Shown here in pieces: positions 25,043 to 58,407 of a DNA stretch of 64,000 bases. Position 1 is the stretch's first letter, and each line of letters starts with the position of its first letter. The position numbers were made by a program, and so were the translations under genes. Source of the DNA: an uncultured Methylomirabilota bacterium (lineage in GTDB: Bacteria; Methylomirabilota; Methylomirabilia; Methylomirabilales; 2-02-FULL-66-22); NCBI GenBank assembly GCA_963845565.1, contig CAWJSJ010000002.1, positions 2,464,001 through 2,528,000 on the forward strand, written 5' to 3'. Under the pieces are notes generated by a model, which made no database searches, was not told the DNA's origin, and was given only the letters and a program-made list of their open reading frames with translations.

Positions 25043-26752
25043 ATGAGCCGACAACGCGATTCTCAACCGACTCCCTTGGAGAATACCAGCCCTCCGCGTC
25101 GCGTGCTCATTGTCGGTGGCGTCGCAGGGGGTGCCTCGTGCGCCGCGCGCCTGCGGCGGCTGGACGAGTCCGTCGAGATCGTCGTGTTCGAGCGCGGCCC
25201 CTACGTCTCGTTCGCTAACTGTGGGCTGCCGTACTACGTCGGGAACGTCATTGCCGACGAGCGTGCCCTGCTGGTCGCGTCGCGCGAGATGTTTCGAACA
25301 CGCTTCAATGTCGACGTGCAGACGGAAACGGAAGTCACCGGCATCGACCGCCGCGCCTGCACGATTACGGTGCGCGACGGCCGCACCGGCACCAGCCGGA
25401 CGGAACGCTACGACGCGCTGGTGCTGTCCCCGGGCGCGGCGCCGATCCGTCCGCCGCTCCCTGGCGTGGACCTTCCCGGCGTCTTCGCGGTGCGCACCAT
25501 CCCCGACTCCCGCCGGATCCGGTCCTGGATCACCGAGCGCCACGCCACGAGCGCGGTCGTCGTCGGGGGCGGTTTCATCGGCTTGGAGATGGTCGAGAAC
25601 CTGCACCAGCGCGAACTGGCCGTGACCGTGCTGGAGAAACTCCCGCAGCTGATGCCCCCGCTCGATCCGGAGATGGCGCTGCCGCTCAGGGAGCATCTGG
25701 TCGCCAAGGGGGTGAAGCTCCAGCTGGGCGACGGACTCGCGAGCATTGAGACGCGGGATGGGGGCGGGTTGGTCGTCGTCGCCGAGAGCGGCGCGCGGTT
25801 GCCCGCAGATCTTGTCATTCTCGCCATCGGCGTGCGGCCCGAGACCGCGCTGGCCAAGGCGGCCGGCCTTGACCTCGGGCCGCGCGGCGGCATTGTCGTC
25901 GATGCGCAGATGCGGACGGCCGATCCGCACATCTGGGCCGTGGGCGATGCTGTCGAAGTGCCCGATGTGGTCACGGGTCAAGAGACCGTGCTGCCCCTGG
26001 CCGGACCGGCCAATCGTCAGGGTCGTGTGGCCGCCGAGGCGATCGCCGGGCGGGCGACGAAGTTCCGCGGGGTCCAGGCCACGGCAGTCGTGGGAGTCCT
26101 GGGCCTGACCGCCGCCTCGACCGGGGCCAGCGAGAAGGGCCTCCGACGGGCCGGCATCACGAATTTCGAAAAAGTATATCTGCATCCGGGACATCACGCG
26201 GGCTATTACCCCGGCGCGCGCCCTATTCATCTCAAGCTCCTGTTCTCGGTGCCGGACGGCCGCATTCTTGGTGCGCAAGCGGTGGGGCTCGAGGGCGTGG
26301 AGAAACGCATCGATGTCATCGCGACCGCGATTCAGTTCCGCGGCACGGTACACGATCTCGCCGAGGCCGAATTGTGTTATGCACCGCAGTACGGGGCTGC
26401 GAAAGATCCGGTGAACCTCGCCGGGATGCTTGCGGTAAATGTGCTGACAGGCGACATGCCGGTGGCTGACTGGTCGGCGCTTGCCGGCACCGATGGGGTA
26501 GTGCTCGACGTGCGCGAACCCGACGAGTTCGCCGCCGGGCACATCCCCCACGCGATCAACCTGCCGCTCTCCCAGTTGCGCGCCCGGTGCGGCGAGCTGC
26601 CCCGGGATCGCGACCTCTGGATCTGTTGTGTCGTGGGACAGCGGGCGTACTACGCGACGCGTTTCTTGGCGCAGCGCGGATATCGGGCACGGAACTTGTC
26701 TGGAGGCTATACGACGTACCTGGCACTCAAGACTTCCGGCCTGGTGCCCTGA
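25043..26752 (+). CDS. CoA-disulfide/persulfide reductase with C-terminal rhodanese domain (CoADR-RHD/Npsr-like)
   Basis: GGVAGG, SFANCGLPY, GGGFIGLE, YAPQY, LDVREPDEF...CCVVGQRAY. Confidence 0.93.
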   Translation: MSRQRDSQPTPLENTSPPRRVLIVGGVAGGASCAARLRRLDESVEIVVFERGPYVSFANCGLPYYVGNVIADERALLVASREMFRTRFNVDVQTETEVTGIDRRACTITVRDGRTGTSRTERYDALVLSPGAAPIRPPLPGVDLPGVFAVRTIPDSRRIRSWITERHATSAVVVGGGFIGLEMVENLHQRELAVTVLEKLPQLMPPLDPEMALPLREHLVAKGVKLQLGDGLASIETRDGGGLVVVAESGARLPADLVILAIGVRPETALAKAAGLDLGPRGGIVVDAQMRTADPHIWAVGDAVEVPDVVTGQETVLPLAGPANRQGRVAAEAIAGRATKFRGVQATAVVGVLGLTAASTGASEKGLRRAGITNFEKVYLHPGHHAGYYPGARPIHLKLLFSVPDGRILGAQAVGLEGVEKRIDVIATAIQFRGTVHDLAEAELCYAPQYGAAKDPVNLAGMLAVNVLTGDMPVADWSALAGTDGVVLDVREPDEFAAGHIPHAINLPLSQLRARCGELPRDRDLWICCVVGQRAYYATRFLAQRGYRARNLSGGYTTYLALKTSGLVP

Positions 26753-29560: not shown

Positions 29561-29803
29561 CTAAATCGGGCACGCGTTCGAGACGGTCACCGTCATCACG
29601 ACATGGCCGGTTGCGGCCGCGCGGAGGAAGGACGCCTTGAGCGCGTCGAAGAGCACGCCGGCTTCGCCGGTCACGAGCGTGCTCATAGGCCCAGGCGTGA
29701 CGGCCAGGGCACCGGCGGCCAGGACGGCCTGCATCTCCCGAATCGCGGGGGACAACCGATCCTGGCGAAGCGGGTACAAACTGATCTGGGCGCTGACATC
29801 CAT
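29561..29803 (-). CDS. YkoF/thiamine-binding (DUF77-like) protein
   Basis: AQISLYPL, GPMSTLVTGE, SNACP. Confidence 0.82.
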   Translation of the reverse strand: MDVSAQISLYPLRQDRLSPAIREMQAVLAAGALAVTPGPMSTLVTGEAGVLFDALKASFLRAAATGHVVMTVTVSNACPI

Positions 29804-29945
29804 GGCGCATGGCTCCTCGGGCAGGACGAGGGCCGAGACGCGGTTGACGGCGCCTCGGCTCTGGGTCCGTCGCCTATCCCCCTCGCACGCTGACATCTCT
29901 GCCTGTGTGATCCACGACTCCGATTTCGCTTCAGGGATCGTTTAG

Positions 29946-30132
29946 CAGGCTGCGACGCCCCCTTTCGACCAGGCCGCTCAAAACGGTCCAGGTGCCAGGC
30001 GGCACGCCGGAGGCGGGGTACCCAGCACCGCTGGGTCCAGGCGTACTGGAAGTACGTCGCAGCGAGTGCCGAGGCGAGCGGGGTACCCGTCCGCAGATGG
30101 GTCACCGCAGATGGGCCGTTTTCAGCGGCCTG
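29946..30132. mobile_element. MITE-like repeat family A, copy 5 (expanded)
   Basis: TTAG-CAGGCTGC...TTTTCAGCGGCCTG-CTAG. Confidence 0.75.
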
Positions 30133-30687
30133 CTAGAGCCCCTTGCGGTCCAGCCAGACGAGCAACGCCCCACAGCCGACGACCATGGGGATGATGACCA
30201 CCCAGTGGTTCACCCCCAGGAGGCCGGGGAGCGTGAGTTTTCCGTACGCCCCGACCTTCAACAAATTGTTCTGGATCAGCGGATACACCTCCGAGTACAG
30301 CCCTGCACCGATCAGGATTCCCAGGATGCCGCGCAGCAACCCATCCACTCGACCCTCACCGAGGGCCCCGGCGCACGTGCCGGGTCAGAACCCGAGGAGC
30401 AGCATCCCGATGCCGAAGATCACTCCGCCCAGGATGTTCGCGGTGAGGATGGTCGGCTTGATGTGCAGGTTGACGAGCCCGAAATCCTTGAGGAGATAGA
30501 CTCCCACCATTCCGGCCAGGATCCCCCCGAACATGACCTTGAGGACGGTCAGGTCCGTGAGCCGGAAGAAGGCCACGATCTTGTCGTAGCGCGTGACCTG
30601 CGCCTTTTGCAGAATGAACCCGAAGGCGATACCCGTCGCCAGCCCAAGAATCAGGCGGGCATTCCCCGTGATCTCTAGTGGTCCCAT
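30133..30687 (-). CDS. YeeE/YedE family transporter subunit, selenocysteine at codon 101
   Basis: FGFILQK...GGVIFGIGMLLLGF-U-PGT (family motif G.CPGT); frame stays open across TGA 30385-30387; hairpin follows. Confidence 0.9.
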
Positions 30688-30689
30688 GC

Positions 30690-31211
30690 TCAGGCCCTCC
30701 GGAAGATCAGGCGCGCGGCGAGGATCCCCGCGGCCATCATGGCGATCAAGAAAAGGAATCCGCTTGCGGCAAGCTGCAGGCCCCCACTGAGCCCGTGGCC
30801 GCTCGTTCACCCATCGGCGAAGCGGGCGCCGAATCCCACCAGGATCCCGCCGAGGATTCCGAGGGCCCATCGCCGGCCAACGCTCGTGCCAAAGCGGTTC
30901 ACCCAGGCCTCGGGAAGCTTCGTGGTGAAATGCACCGTGCCTCGGCTCAACCTGGCCGCCAGGTAGGCTCCGACGGGGATGCCCAGCACGAGCAGGAACT
31001 GCCAGTCCACGATGGGTTTGGTAGCCTTGTAGTAGGCGTTCTGCGCCACGTGCTCCGGCGCCACCACGCTCAGAGCCATCCCCGCCGCCCGCGAGAACGT
31101 CGTAGAGGTCCCGAGCGAAGTGTTGGCGGTGTAGAAGATGACCATGCTGAGGAGGCCCAGGAGCAACCCCGCCTGCCACCAGGGCCACTCCGTCTTGCGG
31201 AGCCAGTTCAT
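30690..31211 (-). CDS. YeeE/YedE family transporter subunit, selenocysteine at codon 135
   Basis: GFGARFADG-U-TSGHGLSG (family motif GARxAxGCTSGH); TGA 30807-30809; hairpin follows. Confidence 0.9.
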
Positions 31212-31384
31212 AGGCTACCCTCCTTCGTTTAGGAAATCAGACCCGGGCGATATCCATCCGCCGGCCGATCCGGCGTGGAGTGGTTCAAGAATAGTCGTTG
31301 CCGTTTTCGAGCGCAAGCGGCTATCGAATGATCCACACCGGGAGCCCGTCGATTTGCTTGGTAGGCGTCAGCGATGATCTCCAC

Positions 31385-31969
31385 TCAAAACAGGACCACG
31401 GACAGGACGACCCCGACGCCGACAACGATGAGGAGATCCACCTTCATCATGAGCGCGACCCACGCCGCCCCCATGAGTCCCCAGGTTCGCCAGTCCTGGA
31501 GAGCCTCCCGGCCAAAACCATACGCCACCAAGAGCAACATCCCAAGGAACGCCGCCAGGATACCCCGGACCATCGCCTGGACGAGCCGCAGGCGCTTGAT
31601 CCGGTCGTAATAGGGGGCCAGCGTGGCGACCATCAGGAACGACGGGAAGAACACCGCCATGGTGCCCAGGAGCGCCCCCACGATCCCGCCGGCCTTGTAC
31701 GCCACGAAGGTTGCCGTGATCACGATCGGACCCGGCGTGACCTGTCCGAGTGCGATACCGTCCATGAACTCTCGCGTGGTCACCCACCCGAAGCGGTCCA
31801 CGACCTCTCGCTGGATGAGGGGAATGGTCGTGAAGCCCCCTCCAAAGGCCATGAGGTCAACCTTCATGAAAACGAGATTCAGCGCGGACAGCGTGGGCGC
31901 GAAGGCGAGCGGAAGCAGCAGGATACACCCGGCCACCGCTCCCGCAACGAGCCAGTTTCGGGCGGTCAT
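31385..31969 (-). CDS. Short-chain chromate transporter (CHR), C-half
   Basis: AFGGG, GQVTPGP. Confidence 0.9.
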   Translation of the reverse strand: MTARNWLVAGAVAGCILLLPLAFAPTLSALNLVFMKVDLMAFGGGFTTIPLIQREVVDRFGWVTTREFMDGIALGQVTPGPIVITATFVAYKAGGIVGALLGTMAVFFPSFLMVATLAPYYDRIKRLRLVQAMVRGILAAFLGMLLLVAYGFGREALQDWRTWGLMGAAWVALMMKVDLLIVVGVGVVLSVVLF

Positions 31970-32532
31970 TGGCTCCCACCTTTTCCTGGAGAAGCGGGGC
32001 GCGCCTCACCGCGGAACAGGACCGGAGCCATCAGGGCCGCTCCGAGGAGGACCAGCACGAGATTCACCCGGAGTGCCAGCGCCACGAAGGCCAGAATCAC
32101 CAGCAGAACCCCTTGCCACCCGTGGACGGCCACCCGGGTCAGTGAAACGCAGGCGTTCAGGATGATGGCTACCACAATGGCTCCGAGTCCGGTGAACACG
32201 GCACGGACCACGGCAAGGTCCCCAAAGGTGAAATAGACCGCGGACAGCCCAGTCATCAGGAGGAACGCCGGCAGGACAAACGCCACTGCTGCGGCCGTCG
32301 CTCCGGACACGCCCCGGAGGCGGTACCCGATGTAGGTGGCCATCTGCATCATGGTGGCACCGGGTATGAGTTGGCAGAGGGCCATGCCCTCCTTGAAGTC
32401 CTGCTCGGTCAGCCAGTGGCGCCGTCCGACGCACTCCTGGCGCAGGGTGGCCATCATCGCCGGCCCGCCATACGCGGTGGCGCCCAGGCGCACGAAGGCG
32501 CCAAGCAAGGTGCGCAACGACACGGGATTCAT
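31966..32532 (-). CDS. Short-chain chromate transporter (CHR), N-half
   Basis: LGATAYGGP, WLTEQDF, CQLIPG, FVLPAF. Confidence 0.9.
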   Translation of the reverse strand: MNPVSLRTLLGAFVRLGATAYGGPAMMATLRQECVGRRHWLTEQDFKEGMALCQLIPGATMMQMATYIGYRLRGVSGATAAAVAFVLPAFLLMTGLSAVYFTFGDLAVVRAVFTGLGAIVVAIILNACVSLTRVAVHGWQGVLLVILAFVALALRVNLVLVLLGAALMAPVLFRGEARPASPGKGGSQ

Positions 32533-33029
32533 GCGGAGGACCTCCGACCCTGCAGATGTTCTTGGTGGGAACCGGCCGAAGGTTGTTCGACGAACTTCGC
32601 CGTCGCAGTGGCCATGACCACGCCGGCTTGACGAAGCTCCGCGGCCAGGTAGTGAATTTGGTGACCGGAGTTCTCGATGCGGGCACGAACGGATACGGTG
32701 CGTTCCGTGGCGACCGGGTGGTGAAAGCGCACGCAGAGCTCCCCGGTGAGTGCCGTGCGCCCCTGCGCAAAGAGGCAATTGGTCATCGCGCCGTCCAGGA
32801 GCAAGCAGATGATGCCGCCATGAAGCGTGTTGGGGTACCCTTCGAAAAGCCTCCCGCAATCGAATTCGGCCTGCACGCTACCATCCGGAAGGGGGTCGAA
32901 ATTGAGATGGAGTCCCGCCGGGTTCTCCGATCCACACAGGATACAATGTGGATGACGGCGTTGCCGGATGTGCGCCAGTTGGTCGGCATGAGGTTCTGGG
33001 AATTCCGTTGGCGTGCACGAGTCTGACAT
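32529..33029 (-). CDS. PaaI family thioesterase
   Basis: CILCGSENPAGL, EGYPNTLHGG..LLD. Confidence 0.88.
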   Translation of the reverse strand: MSDSCTPTEFPEPHADQLAHIRQRRHPHCILCGSENPAGLHLNFDPLPDGSVQAEFDCGRLFEGYPNTLHGGIICLLLDGAMTNCLFAQGRTALTGELCVRFHHPVATERTVSVRARIENSGHQIHYLAAELRQAGVVMATATAKFVEQPSAGSHQEHLQGRRSSA

Positions 33030-35532: not shown

Positions 35533-35931
35533 TCAATGCGCGAGTTCGGGACGCTGAGTGAGACGCCCCTCGATGAAGGCCCGCACGGCCTCCTGGATGT
35601 CGTGCAGGTCGGTCAAGACCGGGCGGATGCCCACCTCCTCGAGGTTTCGCTGCATCCCCATTCCCATGCCGCCCGCCAGGACCGCCTGGCAATCCGCGAT
35701 GACGGCCAACATCTGGCCGTGTCGGTTCCGGCTTGCGGGATCGAACCCATGCGGGCCCGAGCTGTGATGGTCGTCCCCACCTTGTGGGGCAAAGGTGTGG
35801 TGGCCCGCCTTGTCGCGCAGCTCCTGCTGGAGAATGCGCCCGTCCTCCACGGTGAACACGAGGTAATGTCGAGCCCGACCGAAATGCTGACTGATCGTCT
35901 TCCCGTCATCGGTGATGGCTGCAATCTTCAC
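35533..35931 (-). CDS. NifB/NifX (MTH1175-like) family protein with His-rich insert
   Basis: ISQHFGRA, DCQAVLAGGMG. Confidence 0.88.
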   Translation of the reverse strand: MKIAAITDDGKTISQHFGRARHYLVFTVEDGRILQQELRDKAGHHTFAPQGGDDHHSSGPHGFDPASRNRHGQMLAVIADCQAVLAGGMGMGMQRNLEEVGIRPVLTDLHDIQEAVRAFIEGRLTQRPELAH

Positions 35932-36185
35932 TGGTCTGCTCCTGTCGTTCTCCTGTTGTTTGCCGCTGCCGGGGTCTCTCGCGGTGCGCAGGTTGCGTTG
36001 GTGGAGACCTTGCGCGGGGTGGAGCAGGAGATATCCCCACTTCCGCGTGGAACGCGCAGGTTGAGCTTTCGAACATAGGGAGAGAAGGTCCGAGTGCCGC
36101 CCCCCTCGCTGACTACCCGCACATGCCAGCGGCGCGGGTAGACTCGAATGGTCCTTCCGACCGACTCCAGCGCATGTCACCTCGC

Positions 36186-36650
36186 TCATCGCGCTCGACG
36201 CCAGCCCGCCCAGACAGGGATGCCTGCTGCGTCCCTCAACACGAGCACGCTGTCGCCTTTTCGCAGCTCCACTGCAATCACGGCCGGGAGCCCCTCGGCG
36301 AAGGCCTTCGCTCCCATGACCTCGATTCGATCTCCGAGCTCAATCCGAGCGTCCAGATGTTCAATGTACCACGCTGGGCCGAGTTGAACCGGAATACTCA
36401 CCGCTTTCATGGTCAAGAGCAAAGAGATCCCCTCGGCCATCCCCGGCATCGGGACGGTCGTGCTGATTTCCGTCACTTCCCCTGAAAAACTCGAAATTCT
36501 CGACGGGTTGTAGCAGCGGTTATAGGGCGAGTCCGCTCCCCAACCGCCGCTGCCACGCCATCCCTCCCACCCGTTCGCCCGGGCGGGGAGCGACATGACG
36601 ATGCATCCGGTCACCAGCGCAACTACGCCCAGGACACCCAAGCGCTTCAT
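36186..36650 (-). CDS. Exported OB-fold-like hypothetical protein
   Basis: Signal peptide; WRGSGGWG, V.LGPAWY, GDRIEV.G, LRDAAGIPVWAGW. Confidence 0.7.
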   Translation of the reverse strand: MKRLGVLGVVALVTGCIVMSLPARANGWEGWRGSGGWGADSPYNRCYNPSRISSFSGEVTEISTTVPMPGMAEGISLLLTMKAVSIPVQLGPAWYIEHLDARIELGDRIEVMGAKAFAEGLPAVIAVELRKGDSVLVLRDAAGIPVWAGWRRAR

Positions 36651-36698
36651 GGCAGGCCTCCTTTACTCCGCAGGCTCGCCCCGGTTGCCGGGCGACAA

Positions 36699-37598
36699 TC
36701 ATCGGATTGCCTCGAGCGTGGCGCGCGTTTCCTGCCAGACTCCGCGAAGCGCCTTCGCGGCAGGCCCGTCGGCGATCTCCACGACGCTCTTCCGTTGACC
36801 CTGTGCATGAGTGAACACAGGGTCATAGGGTATCCGCCCGACGATCCGGATTCCACGTGCTTGGCACCATCGCTCGATGGCCGAGGCGACGTCCGGGTTG
36901 AGGTCGGCCTTGTTGATGCACACGGCCATCGGAATCCGAAAATGCGCCGTGAGGGCGGCCAACCGCTCCAGATCGTGCTGACCCGAGAGGGTCGGCTCCG
37001 CCACGCCGAGGACCAGATCCGTTCCGGCGACGGAGGCGATGACGGGGCATCCGATGCCGGGCGAACCATCCACCAGGAGCAGGTCCAGGTCCCGCTCCTT
37101 CGCCACGGCTCGCGCTCCTTCGCGGACAAGCGTCACCAGCTTCCCGGAGTTTTCCCCGCCGGGGTCCAAGCGCGCGTGGACCAGCGGCCCATGGCGCGTC
37201 TCGGAGATATACCACTCGCCGTCGCGCCCGAGGCTGAACTCCACCGCCTGGGTGGGGCAGACGTGCGAACACACGCCGCAGCCCTCGCAGGCGAGGGGAT
37301 CCACGCGATACGTCTTCGCAATGGCCCCGTTACCGGGCCCGTCGAACGCAATGGCTCCGAACCGACAATGTTCGGCGCATGCGCCACAGCCCGCGCACCG
37401 ATCCGCGACGATGTGGGCCCGCCGCCTTCCCTGGAACTCCTGGACCTGCAGCGTCCGCGGCGTGAGGATCAGGTGAAGATCGGCGGCGTCCACATCGCAA
37501 TCGGCCAGCACCTTCCGATCCGCCAGCGCGGCGAACGCGGCGACCAGGCTCGTCTTGCCCGTCCCGCCCTTGCCGCTGAGGACGACCATCTCCTTCAC
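36699..37598 (-). CDS. MinD/CobQ-like P-loop ATPase with 4Fe-4S dicluster
   Basis: SGKGGTGKT, DCDVDAADL, two CxxCxxCxxxC motifs, GGENSGKLV, DGSPGIGCP. Confidence 0.93.
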   Translation of the reverse strand: MKEMVVLSGKGGTGKTSLVAAFAALADRKVLADCDVDAADLHLILTPRTLQVQEFQGRRRAHIVADRCAGCGACAEHCRFGAIAFDGPGNGAIAKTYRVDPLACEGCGVCSHVCPTQAVEFSLGRDGEWYISETRHGPLVHARLDPGGENSGKLVTLVREGARAVAKERDLDLLLVDGSPGIGCPVIASVAGTDLVLGVAEPTLSGQHDLERLAALTAHFRIPMAVCINKADLNPDVASAIERWCQARGIRIVGRIPYDPVFTHAQGQRKSVVEIADGPAAKALRGVWQETRATLEAIR

Positions 37599-38443
37599 GA
37601 GCGCACCGCCGAGCGGAGCCGACCGAAGAGGTCGTTCATCCAGCGGTCGAATCCCGGGAAGCTGCGAGCGGCCAATTCGCCGCGGGAATAGATTTCAGCG
37701 ATACGGCGGTCCTCGGGAATCTGCAGCAGGACCGGGATGTTGGACTGGGCACAGTACCGCTGGACCCCGTCGCCGCCCGGACCCACGCGATTGATCGCGA
37801 CCCCGTGAGGCACGCCCACTTTTCGAATGGCGTCGACGGCCAGTGTGAGATCGTGGAGCCCGAAGACGGTCGGTTCCGCGACGAGGAGGACAAAATCGGC
37901 GCCTCGGACGGTTTCAATCATGGGGCACGACGTCCCCGGTGGCGCGTCCAGGATGGCGATCCCCGCGCGCGGCAGGTGCCTTTTCACGGCCCGGATGATC
38001 GGTGGGGACATCGGCTGGCCGATCTGGAGCCGTCCCTCCACGAACTGTATGGGCCCGGAAGCGCCTCGGGCAACCTCCCCGATCGCTCGCGGGATCTCCC
38101 GGATGGCCTTCTCCGGGCAAACCAAGGCGCAGCCCCCGCAGCCACAACACAACTCGGGAAACGTCAGCACGGCACTCCCCAGGCAGACGATCGCGTGGGA
38201 CTGGCAGAACTCGCCGCAGCGCCCGCACCGTGTGCAGCGGGCCTCATCCACCTCTGGGACGGGGATGGTGACCGCCTCCCGGCTCGTGATGACCGGCTTC
38301 AGGAAGATGTGCCCGTTGGGCGCCTCCACGTCACAGTCGAGGTAGGTCACCGAGTGATCCTGGTCTGCCAGGACGCTGGCCAGATTCGTGGCCAGAATGG
38401 TCTTCCCGGTGCCGCCCTTACCGCTGGCGAAGACGATCCGCAT
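37595..38443 (-). CDS. MinD/CobQ-like P-loop ATPase with 4Fe-4S dicluster
   Basis: ASGKGGTGKT, DCDVEAPN, two ferredoxin motifs, DAPPGTSCP. Confidence 0.93.
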   Translation of the reverse strand: MRIVFASGKGGTGKTILATNLASVLADQDHSVTYLDCDVEAPNGHIFLKPVITSREAVTIPVPEVDEARCTRCGRCGEFCQSHAIVCLGSAVLTFPELCCGCGGCALVCPEKAIREIPRAIGEVARGASGPIQFVEGRLQIGQPMSPPIIRAVKRHLPRAGIAILDAPPGTSCPMIETVRGADFVLLVAEPTVFGLHDLTLAVDAIRKVGVPHGVAINRVGPGGDGVQRYCAQSNIPVLLQIPEDRRIAEIYSRGELAARSFPGFDRWMNDLFGRLRSAVRS

Positions 38444-38582
38444 GCGCGTTCCCTTGGATACTACCGTGCCACACGGCGACTCCGCCGCTACGTTTCAGAC
38501 GCCAACCTTCGGTCCGACAGTTGCTCGAAACGCTTGCGGGTCCATCCGGGGAAGGCATCGCCCTCCCCGGATGTCAATCCTG

Positions 38583-38939
38583 TTATTCAGCCTTCGCGCC
38601 GCTTTCGAGCTTCTGAATGCGCTGTTGCAGCGATTGCAACGTCTGCTCCAGGTACCCGGCCTGGGCCTTCAGCGCATTCACTTCGACCTCTGGGGGCATC
38701 GCCTGCGCAACAGGCGTCGCGTAGGGATAGGGTCCGGCGCCCCAGGCCGGAACGCCCATCCCGGCTCTCGCCCAGCCCGGCAAGCCCGTGGCATGGAACC
38801 AGTGCCGCCACCCCCGGCCGCCACCCCGCCCCCCGGCCGAACTGAGGATTCCCGGTGCCCCAGCCCCGCCGCAATATCCGGCGCCGCGGCCCGTCAGTGG
38901 GCCGCCGCCCATCGGTCCCGTGCGATCTCCTCGTGGCAT
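38583..38939 (-). CDS. DUF5320 family protein
   Basis: MPRGDRTGPMGGGPLTGRGAGYC, ATGLPGWAR, C-terminal coiled coil. Confidence 0.9.
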   Translation of the reverse strand: MPRGDRTGPMGGGPLTGRGAGYCGGAGAPGILSSAGGRGGGRGWRHWFHATGLPGWARAGMGVPAWGAGPYPYATPVAQAMPPEVEVNALKAQAGYLEQTLQSLQQRIQKLESGAKAE

Positions 38940-38988
38940 CGTAGTCCCTCCTTTCGTCGCCCGGTCTCGCCGAGAATGTGAGACCGTC

Positions 38989-39351
38989 TTACCAGTGGGG
39001 TTGAACATCGGCCTCCGCAGCCTCCTGCAGGAGACCAGCCTGGAACTGCTTCACGGCGTCCTGGACCGTTCCCTCCGCCACTCCGGTGTAGACGCGAACA
39101 CCGGCAGCATGCAGCGCCCGGTACGCGTTGGGGCCGCAGTGGCCCGTGAGCACTGCGTGAACTCCCTGGTCTGCCATCAACCGCGCTGCCTGGATGCCCG
39201 CGCCTTGCCCGGAGCTGCTCGCTTCCCGGTTGTCGAGCGCTCGAACGGCTCCGGTGTCCGTATCCATGACGACGAACGCTGCCGCCCGGCCGAACCGAGT
39301 GTCCACGGCTGCCTCAAGATCCACTCCCTTTGCAGTGACCGCGATGATCAT
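38989..39351 (-). CDS. NifB/NifX (MTH1175/Orp-like) protein
   Basis: VDTRFGRA, GAGIQAA, LTGHCGPNA, QPHW. Confidence 0.9.
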   Translation of the reverse strand: MIIAVTAKGVDLEAAVDTRFGRAAAFVVMDTDTGAVRALDNREASSSGQGAGIQAARLMADQGVHAVLTGHCGPNAYRALHAAGVRVYTGVAEGTVQDAVKQFQAGLLQEAAEADVQPHW

Positions 39352-39389
39352 TCTCGGGTCTCCCTCTGGCTCGGTGTTGCTCCGGGGGG

Positions 39390-39785
39390 TCAGGTCTGTC
39401 CGTGGCCCTGGGGACCAGCCGGAGTACAGTGGTGCCGCCAACGGCCCCGACAGCCCGGCATCCTCCAGCGGGAGTCCGACAGGCGCTTCGTCAGGTACGC
39501 CCGCAAGACGCCCTCCACGGGGCCCGACACCCACGGGATCACGACCACTCCCGAGGCAGAAACGATCTCTGCCAACGGTCGGGAGATGGCGCCGCAAATG
39601 AGGACATTCACCTCCAGTTCCGTCAACCGCCGCGCGCGCTGAGTCAGGAAAGAGTCTCCCCCAATCTCGACGACGATACGGGGTCCGCGCTCCGCCCCTT
39701 GCTCCACGTCGACGAGGAGAAGCCGATTCGACGTGTCGAAGACGGGTGAGATGCGATCATTCCAAACCGCGATGGCCACCTGCAT
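39390..39785 (-). CDS. NifB/NifX family protein
   Basis: RISPVFD, VLICGAIS, WRMPGC. Confidence 0.88.
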   Translation of the reverse strand: MQVAIAVWNDRISPVFDTSNRLLLVDVEQGAERGPRIVVEIGGDSFLTQRARRLTELEVNVLICGAISRPLAEIVSASGVVVIPWVSGPVEGVLRAYLTKRLSDSRWRMPGCRGRWRHHCTPAGPQGHGQT

Positions 39786-39813
39786 CGAGTCCCCCATGTT
39801 CACTGGGGTGTAG

Positions 39814-39830
39814 AGCATCTACCGTGCCAA
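39814..39830 (-). promoter_or_regulatory. sigma54 -24/-12 promoter
   Basis: TTGGCACGGTAGATGCT (GG-N10-GC). Confidence 0.8.
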
Positions 39831-57690: not shown

Positions 57691-58407
57691 CTATTTCTCC
57701 ATGGCCGGCTTCCACACCTTCCAGACGTTGCCAACGAGGTTCGGCCCAGGGGTGAGCGTCAGTTCCCCCGGCATCCAGCCTGCCGGCGTGGCCTCTTTGC
57801 CGCCCGAGGCCCGCACGTGTTGGTACGCTTGGATCTGGCGGACCGACTCGGCGAACTTGCGGCCCACCGGCGGGGTGAGTACTTCCATGGCCTGGATGAC
57901 TCCGTCCGGGTCGATGATGAAGCGACCCCGCAGTTCGATCCCTTGGCCTTCGTCATAGACCCCGAACGCCCGGCCGACATTGCCGGCCTGATCCGATGCC
58001 ATGTGGAAGGGGACGCCGCCGTCCACCATCTTCACCAGTTCGTGGTCGTTCCACATCTTGTGGACGAAATGGCTGTCCACACTGACGGAGATGACCTCCG
58101 CGCCCAGCTTCTGCAGGACAGGATACTTGTCGGCGACCGCCGACACTTCCGTCGCTCAGACAAAGGTGAAATCACCGGGGTAGAAGCACAGCAACACCCA
58201 TTTCCCCAGGTAGTCCGACAGCTTGACCGAGGTGAACCCGCCGCGGTAGTACGCCGGGGCGGAGAAGTCGGGAGCCTTCTGTCCTACGCGCGCAGTCACG
58301 ATTTTCTCCTCCTTCTTCGTCGGGGTCTCGGCGGATTGTGGCCCGCCAGTCTCCTGCCCCGCGACCGTCCCGGTCACGCGAGCGCAGCCTTGCGGTTGCT
58401 CTGCCAT
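57691..58407 (-). CDS. prxU: AhpC-type peroxiredoxin with Sec as the peroxidatic residue (PrxU-like)
   Basis: [13 protein letters not shown] (family FTFVCPTE); TGA 58156-58158 in frame; hairpin UGUCGGC-GGUC-GCCGACA. Confidence 0.92.

Follow-up and report, generated by a model that had tools for sequence, protein, structure and literature searches.

Two adjacent genes of an uncultured Methylomirabilota bacterium, here called A and B, are almost certainly both selenoprotein genes in which selenocysteine (Sec, U) is inserted at an in-frame TGA codon, and their products probably form a heterodimer made of the two halves of a YeeE/YedE-type transporter. The reading of the codons as Sec, which comes from sequence comparison, is supported by the alignment of both TGAs with conserved cysteines, by selection on the hairpins that follow them, and by selA, a Sec-encoding selD and tRNA-Sec in the genome. 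Gene A is a member of a catalogued family, while Sec in half B (FUPGTC) and the double form are absent from the catalogues that we checked.

Two half-length YeeE genes and their TGA codons

The genes lie on the minus strand of the window, the whole stretch of 64,000 nucleotides that was analysed. The C-half gene stands first: gene A (31211–30690) encodes 173 aa, a PmpA/YedE-type C-terminal YeeE half with four predicted transmembrane helices. Gene B (30687–30133) comes second and encodes 184 aa, the N-terminal half plus the linker helix H7, with five predicted transmembrane helices. As the initial annotation had read them, A contains GARFADG-TGA-TSGHG and B contains LLLGF-TGA-PGT, and both frames stay open to family-like C-termini, that of A to FRRA with a terminal TGA at 30692–30690 and that of B to a TAG at 30135–30133. 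A GGAGG-type ribosome-binding site for A can be read directly from the sequence at 31216–31224 (minus strand). At the junction of the two genes (30688–30700, minus strand), the GGAGG site of B is placed inside the last codons of A, and the stop codon of A ends 2 nt before the ATG of B, a layout that suggests translational coupling of A and B. No match to a sigma-70 promoter was found in window positions 29700–31500. Six RNA runs contain 14–26% of the sequence words of the locus, and these were not counted as evidence of expression. A second Sec codon at the terminal TGA of A (30692–30690) was considered and ruled out; this TGA is a true stop, because the aligned stretch of Spirochaeta thermophila YeeE (StYeeE) finishes at the same FRRA, because most Cys homologues are 172–174 aa long, and because the codon sits between the GGAGG site and the ATG of B.

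With Sec read as Cys, A and B score 81.6 and 53.6 bits against PF04143 (gathering cut-off 27), A matching the C-terminal half of the profile (171–309) and B the N-terminal half, and their annotated membership of the YeeE/YedE family was thus borne out. In the alignment with StYeeE, the TGA of A (30809–30807, minus strand; codon 135 of 173, Sec135) coincides with Cys293 on the periplasmic side, and that of B (30387–30385, minus strand; codon 101 of 184, Sec101) with Cys91 in the middle of the protein, so that the proposed placement of Sec at the conserved Cys holds in both halves. Sec101 is followed by Cys105, giving a UxxxC motif. Of 120 full-length homologues of B, 119 have Cys at position 101. 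Sequencing errors do not account for the TGAs, because both are also found on two other metagenome contigs that are 99% identical to the window (L070 and L071) and in dozens of relatives. Among the matches listed, 80 of 120 gene A homologues stop just before the Sec codon; this is the gene-caller truncation that had been predicted, and these genes are consequently misannotated.

Hairpins and selenocysteine machinery

Each TGA is followed by a SECIS-type hairpin with the position and loop originally described. The hairpin of A (30770–30806, minus strand) has a 7-pair upper stem, CGGGCUC/GGGCCUG, the loop AGUGG 18 nt after the UGA, and a lower stem, CGAGC/GCUUG. That of B (30349–30384, minus strand) has a stem of 7–9 pairs, seven of them GGCCCUC/GAGGGUC, and a GGN loop, here GGU, 24 nt after the UGA. 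The folding energies of 60-mers were not unusual relative to shuffled sequences (z 0.77 for A and 0.11 for B), and support for the hairpins therefore comes from their position and conservation. Under a SECIS-like scoring rule of our own, which is not bSECISearch, A scores −9.5 and B −9.7 kcal/mol, against a background in the same genome where 634 of 7085 Cys codons (9%) and 88 of 957 terminal TGAs reach −8. As a comparison set we used selD and 14 candidates from an ab initio TGA screen, all 15 chosen by motif. In 12 of these other selenoprotein candidates the UGA is followed by a hairpin of 6–8 pairs with a G-containing loop at 16–26 nt and a score of −7.9 or better. Within the best 80 of 176 metagenome loci, a score of −8 or lower was reached by 29 of 31 distinct A-Sec contexts vs 4 of 15 A-Cys contexts, and by 25 of 27 B-Sec contexts vs 1 of 5 B-Cys contexts.

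Synonymous sites within the hairpins point the same way. In the Sec versions of A the codons CTC (51/51) and AGT (49/49) are invariant, whereas 18 Cys versions use AGC 11 times and AGT 7 times; in the Sec versions of B, CCC and GCC are each found in 65 of 65 sequences, whereas six Cys versions use three codons at each site. These sites are frozen where Sec is encoded and free where Cys is, which indicates at the sequence level that the hairpins are under selection. Pairing was also examined across relatives, in sequences that are kin, so that the counts overstate independent events: in the upper stem of A, C-G takes the place of G-C in 18 of 43 sequences, whichever register is used, the lower stem of A is 82% paired vs 14–38% when slid, and the stem of B is 90% paired, with one pair altered on both sides in 3 of 38.

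The host genome (5.36 Mb in six contigs) holds the SelB and tRNA-Sec that the initial annotation looked to, with tRNA-Sec(TCA), a selA above cut-off and a selD that has an in-frame TGA of its own. The selB gene is present with three frameshifts in the assembly (G000:C4:5483-7400; near C4 5633, 5721 and 5936). Each consists of a single added base when compared with the intact selB of the relative G009, and contigs from other public runs are without the extra base at all three places, one of them being otherwise identical over 262 nt; the three insertions are thus probably assembly errors. A TRAP permease gene upstream of selB also looks frameshifted. We searched ten further genomes with Sec forms (among G004, G016, G021, G024, G051, G227 and G251–G255), and all except G252 have selA or selB. 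In G252, a carrier of the double-Sec pair, neither gene was found and the tRNA-Sec match is marginal, which may reflect incompleteness, misbinning or decay.

These data bear on the alternative that the TGAs are real stops or signs of decay, in pseudogenes or in a strain unable to insert Sec. The frameshifts of selB in the assembly and the ordinary folding energies would fit such a reading. Against it stand the selB of G009 and the contigs of other runs, which lack the extra bases, the selection seen on the hairpins, and the 52 distinct pairs from several lineages that keep both TGAs and have intact frames beyond them, and we consider it highly improbable.

Genome-wide, motif and hairpin together indicate about 15 further selenoprotein candidates, which from their motifs we take to include Prx, Trx/TlpA, AhpD-like, NifU-like, DsrE-like and GrdB-like proteins. 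Another selenoprotein candidate lies within the window itself, a peroxiredoxin at 58158 (minus strand) with DFTFV-TGA-ATE and a strong SECIS-type hairpin.

Distribution of selenocysteine and cysteine in the family

The distribution of Sec and Cys, for which the initial annotation had proposed a survey, was examined in relatives fetched with B residues 1–100 only, which excludes the Sec site. Among the best 80 of 176 metagenome loci, with 17 duplicates dropped, the states of A and B are U/U in 38, C/U in 9, C/C in 5 and U/C in none; in nine further loci of this set one half is cut off (all U), and two are damaged. An exact pattern requiring both TGAs (A-TSG[HQ] with B-G[FY]UPGT at a spacing of 415–445) found at least 11 loci in GTDB species genomes, a lower bound because the pattern missed G024, a U/U carrier. 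They comprise six from Deltaproteobacteria/Binatia, one each from Rokubacteria, Methylomirabilota and Solibacteraceae, and two unclassified, and four of the 11 were already among the relatives of the window's pair. All of them are 68–88% identical to A and B, and we therefore regard them as one clade scattered over lineages. Of 251 genomes from the host phylum, only 17 gave a match to gene A at E ≤ 1e-15. In the relatives, A and B are adjacent at a fixed spacing.

We built a tree from 105 concatenated A+B pairs with the Sec columns masked and 10 short loci omitted. The double-Sec clade (SH-aLRT 99) contains 68 pairs, namely 52 U/U, 10 C/U, 5 C/C, 1 damaged and no U/C, and the double-Sec pair is present in Methylomirabilota, Rokubacteria and Binatia. 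In unrooted counts over the clade and a single outgroup row, nine changes are needed at the A site and three at the B site. The C/U state needs six changes, of which the starred branches require at least four, and several C/U rows are nested within groups of U/U. Cys repeatedly takes the place of Sec in A, even in a relative of 94% identity, and thus two selenium atoms are not required. Some Cys-A genes retain the hairpin whole or in part, which suggests that Sec was lost from A, with the direction of change drawn from these remnants and the counts being unrooted.

A second double-Sec lineage was found neither among 29 loci of the sister subfamily, from another phylum sample, nor among nine distant loci. 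The sister loci are 22 U/C and 7 C/C, with Cys in the partner half B in 29 of 29. The nine distant loci, which have a TGA within B or close to it, are 8 C/U and 1 C/C. In this distant split subfamily Sec stands at the C91 site in L021 and in 8 of 9 fetched loci; L021 and L183–L190 have the B-half motif G[YL]UPGT[SA] with Cys in A, and in 6 of these 9 the hairpin is clear by our own score. Full-length three-Cys TsuA-like YeeE genes of the host's order also have a TGA at the C91 site in 9 of 15 loci (L025, L027, L030, L031, L033 and L035–L038), in the motif GGUASG and with Cys retained at C22 and C293. Judged from sequence, Sec across the family is found at the outer site alone, at both sites, or at the middle site alone.

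The initial annotation had remarked that Sec variants of this family may already be catalogued. This is so for the A-type half: two reviews tabulate a Sec-containing YeeE/YedE family that has one Sec and the motif GUxSG (PMC13188914, PMC9312934), and a 2016 survey supplement lists five such proteins from five organisms (PMC5029168). The representative printed in the deep-Sep supplements, WP_012471001.1, and the two further examples given there are all A-type halves (PMC12013277), and the representative reads ADGUPSGHGL, the same site as ADGUTSGHGL in A. Gene A fits this half-size C-terminal type, with GUxSG at the C293 site, whereas gene B differs in encoding the N-terminal half and in having FUPGT where C91 stands in StYeeE; each catalogued entry has one Sec, whereas the window's pair carries two. 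For the B-type half the remark does not hold in the catalogues searched: GFUPG, GYUPG, UPGTC and GGUASG are absent from four supplementary files of the 2016 survey and deep-Sep, and a 2026 review has no UxxxC or B-type entry. The literature searched, which covered few subscription papers, holds no description of a double-Sec pair.

The direct neighbours of the window's pair are a split chromate transporter, a YkoF-like protein and a methyltransferase. The chromate-transporter gene pair (31385–32859, minus strand), just upstream, stands beside A and B only in near kin, in 9 of 94 clade loci. No conserved operon partner was found among these 94 loci, and the commonest neighbour, a family-less, weakly MamS-like protein, occurs in 24 of them, mostly within one lineage. 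A CoA-disulfide reductase-rhodanese fusion, presumably persulfide-reductase-like by analogy, is encoded at 25043–26752 (plus strand); genes homologous to it are found close to the pair in 6 of the 94 clade loci and 3 of the 29 sister loci. In a Rokubacteria locus (L059), the double-Sec pair is directly downstream of soxB and of genes for a SoxH-like hydrolase, flavocytochrome c and cytochrome c. An element of roughly 170 bp with inverted ends (29960–30137) starts at the stop codon of gene B; it is MITE-like, and all six contigs hold many copies of it, complete or partial. Further away (35533–39818, minus strand) lie genes for three NifB/NifX-type FeMo-co-binding proteins, two P-loop 4Fe-4S ATPases and a DUF5320 protein.

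Probable assembly of the pair and its possible cargo

A heterodimer, as had been proposed, is supported by the fold match of B, the sequence match of A to the C-half of StYeeE, the fixed adjacency of the genes and a weak complex score. B was modelled through a Cys orthologue of 83% identity (pLDDT 77). The model shows five long helices and superposes on residues 1–185 of StYeeE, and hence B includes H7. It matches 8J4C with Z 9.4 (rmsd 3.1, 168 residues aligned; next unrelated match Z 5.9), and its best Foldseek match is 6LEP (E 0.07, TM 0.61). The single-chain model of A is poor (pLDDT 60.5) and had no match in the fold search; by profile, A matches the C-half of StYeeE with E 6e-8. The five predicted helices of B and the four of A restore a nine-helix protein, and the loop charges are compatible, in a topology taken from homology, with B having its N-terminus out and C-terminus in and A having both ends in. 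Complex prediction with Cys orthologues gave 0.50 vs 0.00 for the best control (runs agreeing in ≥ 99% of contacts, partner pLDDT ≥ 70), a score graded weak since values of ≤ 0.60 were given by 18 of 157 solved complexes and also by the two mismatches, out of 215, that passed; it may reflect the likeness of the modelled chains to solved single-chain YeeE. The proposal of a heterodimer has precedents and weak support from modelling.

These precedents are Cys proteins. A split YeeE heterodimer, PmpA/PmpB, has been proposed in Serratia in a paper whose main text does not mention selenocysteine (PMC11582611), and in the closest system that has been tested, YedE1/YedE2 of Cupriavidus and Sinorhizobium, both halves and both Cys are needed for import of zero-valent sulfur, with a persulfide intermediate proposed (PMC10812762). 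Like the window's pair, these are two adjacent half genes with one residue each, Cys or Sec, matching C91 or C293. They differ in being about 130 aa with four helices each, without H7 and with Cys, whereas the window's pair has 173 and 184 aa, H7 in B, Sec at both sites and an extra Cys at +4 in B. The single-chain TsuA/YeeE proteins (S. thermophila, 6LEO/8J4C, and E. coli) share the fold, the C91 and C293 positions and K67 with the pair, but have three Cys, R215 and a YeeD partner (PMC7449682), while the pair is split with the C-half gene first. K67 of StYeeE is the invariant K77 of B, and E241 aligns with the invariant Q71 of A; C22 aligns with T32 of B and R215 with an Ala/Asn stretch of A, so that both of these residues are absent from the pair. 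The Cys sites of StYeeE lie about 7 Å apart, C293 towards the periplasm, C91 in the centre and C22 on the cytoplasmic side; C91A and C293A are inactive and C22A is still active, and crystals contain a C22–C91 disulfide (PMC7449682).

In the mechanism that we propose, A and B would be co-translated and assemble as one antiparallel nine-helix YeeE-fold channel, B giving H1–H7 (N-terminus out, C-terminus in) and A giving H8–H13 (both ends in). This would place Sec135 of A at the mouth on the periplasmic side and Sec101 of B where the channel narrows in its centre. The cargo would be sulfane sulfur (polysulfide or persulfide sulfur), imported as by the Cys-only split YedE1E2. The outer selenolate would attack the S-S bond to give a selenyl-sulfide, and the sulfur would be handed to the middle selenolate, from which a cytoplasmic thiol would take it up; Cys105, which lies one turn of the helix beyond Sec101, may resolve the adduct or stand in for the missing inner Cys22. 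Sec is ionised at neutral pH and is a poorer hydrogen-bond donor and better nucleophile than a thiol, and Sec at both sites would therefore favour a covalent relay of sulfane sulfur over one of S-H-S hydrogen bonds. Sulfane sulfur as the cargo, with covalent chemistry, is an analogy to which we give not quite an even chance. More tentative, and with the odds somewhat against it, is the fuller proposal that the whole conserved channel pathway is built of Sec on two chains (U135 and U101, with C105 resolving) and works by covalent selenyl-sulfide transfer of sulfur.

The +4 Cys and the neighbours of the pair also bear on a different function. The heterodimer could move electrons and not sulfur, as a transmembrane thiol-disulfide relay like CcdA/DsbD that reduces periplasmic or membrane targets, with U101xxxC105 and U135 cycling between selenol and selenenyl-sulfide or diselenide. 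UxxxC is found in 67 of 68 clade rows and in 0 of 29 sister rows, and in the model of B U101 caps a short helix (102–110) with C105 in its first turn, an arrangement that would suit such a relay, as would the C22–C91 disulfide of StYeeE. Recurrent neighbours are thiol-redox and stress proteins: among the 94 clade loci there are 10 protein disulfide oxidoreductases, 7 OsmC-like proteins, 6 CoA-disulfide reductase-rhodanese fusions and 6 1-Cys Prx. These neighbours, together with the soxB and flavocytochrome c genes ahead of the Rokubacteria pair, also speak for sulfane sulfur as the cargo. The neighbours lean to thiol-redox and sulfur functions, though the neighbourhood is unconserved and many of the counted loci are close kin. 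However, CxxxC is also present in Cys-only relatives, the 94 clade loci show no conserved gene for a dedicated thioredoxin partner next to A and B, and TsuA, YedE1E2 and SoxT move or sense sulfur species (PMC7449682, PMC10812762, PMC11582611). We consider an electron relay unlikely.

The selenol relay for sulfur or selenium species that the initial annotation had put forward is plausible, but thiosulfate and selenium are less likely cargoes than sulfane sulfur. A TsuA-like thiosulfate channel, with Sec standing in for Cys in a non-covalent relay, draws support from the common fold and the same two essential positions, from the activity of StYeeE C22A (PMC7449682), from the conserved lysine K77, and from the full-length three-Cys genes of the host's order that also take Sec at the C91 site. 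On the TsuA models NF041049 and NF052577, however, A and B reach 21–48 bits vs cut-offs of 645 and 400, a weak test since half-length proteins cannot attain full-length cut-offs. Cys22 and Arg215 are absent, no YeeD/TusA-like gene was found in the window flanks or, with one TusA-like query, in the 94 clade loci (short loci, median 3.7 kb), and on general grounds an anionic selenolate is ill-suited to the passage of anions by hydrogen bonds. This makes a thiosulfate channel quite unlikely.

Import of selenium species (selenide, selenopersulfide or selenite) for selenium homeostasis would accord with the link of YedE proteins to selenium use (PMC9312934, PMC11582611) and with the many selenoprotein candidates of the host. 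The seleno-YedE (TIGR04112) and YedE/FdhT (NF033796) proteins belong to the same Pfam family as A and B and are linked to selenium metabolism, but they are full-length, and A and B score about 30 bits on these models vs cut-offs of 200 and 350. The host genome has a separate full-length seleno-YedE (G000:C1:356539-359139; 473.8 bits vs the TIGR04112 cut-off of 200), which argues against a role of A and B in selenium supply; it adjoins a TusA-like ORF and a cysteine desulfurase/Sec-lyase-like gene. Furthermore, no sel genes are among the recurrent neighbours of the pair, and a selenium-dependent importer would be expected to fail under selenium starvation. Selenium import thus appears improbable.

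Half B is a selenoprotein type absent from the catalogues searched, and the relay of sulfane sulfur through two Sec residues would touch on a dispute over how YeeE-fold proteins use their cysteines. S-H-S hydrogen bonds (PMC7449682) and a persulfide intermediate (PMC10812762) have both been put forward, and the SoxT paper doubts direct transfer of sulfur between sites about 7 Å apart (PMC11582611). Sec that is selected for at both essential positions argues for nucleophilic chemistry, and near-identical natural U/U and C/U pairs, with A halves 94–95% identical, make the mechanism testable. If the pathway is indeed built of Sec throughout, the natural series of U/C, U/U, C/U and C/C pairs would test the hydrogen-bond against the covalent working of YeeE-fold proteins.
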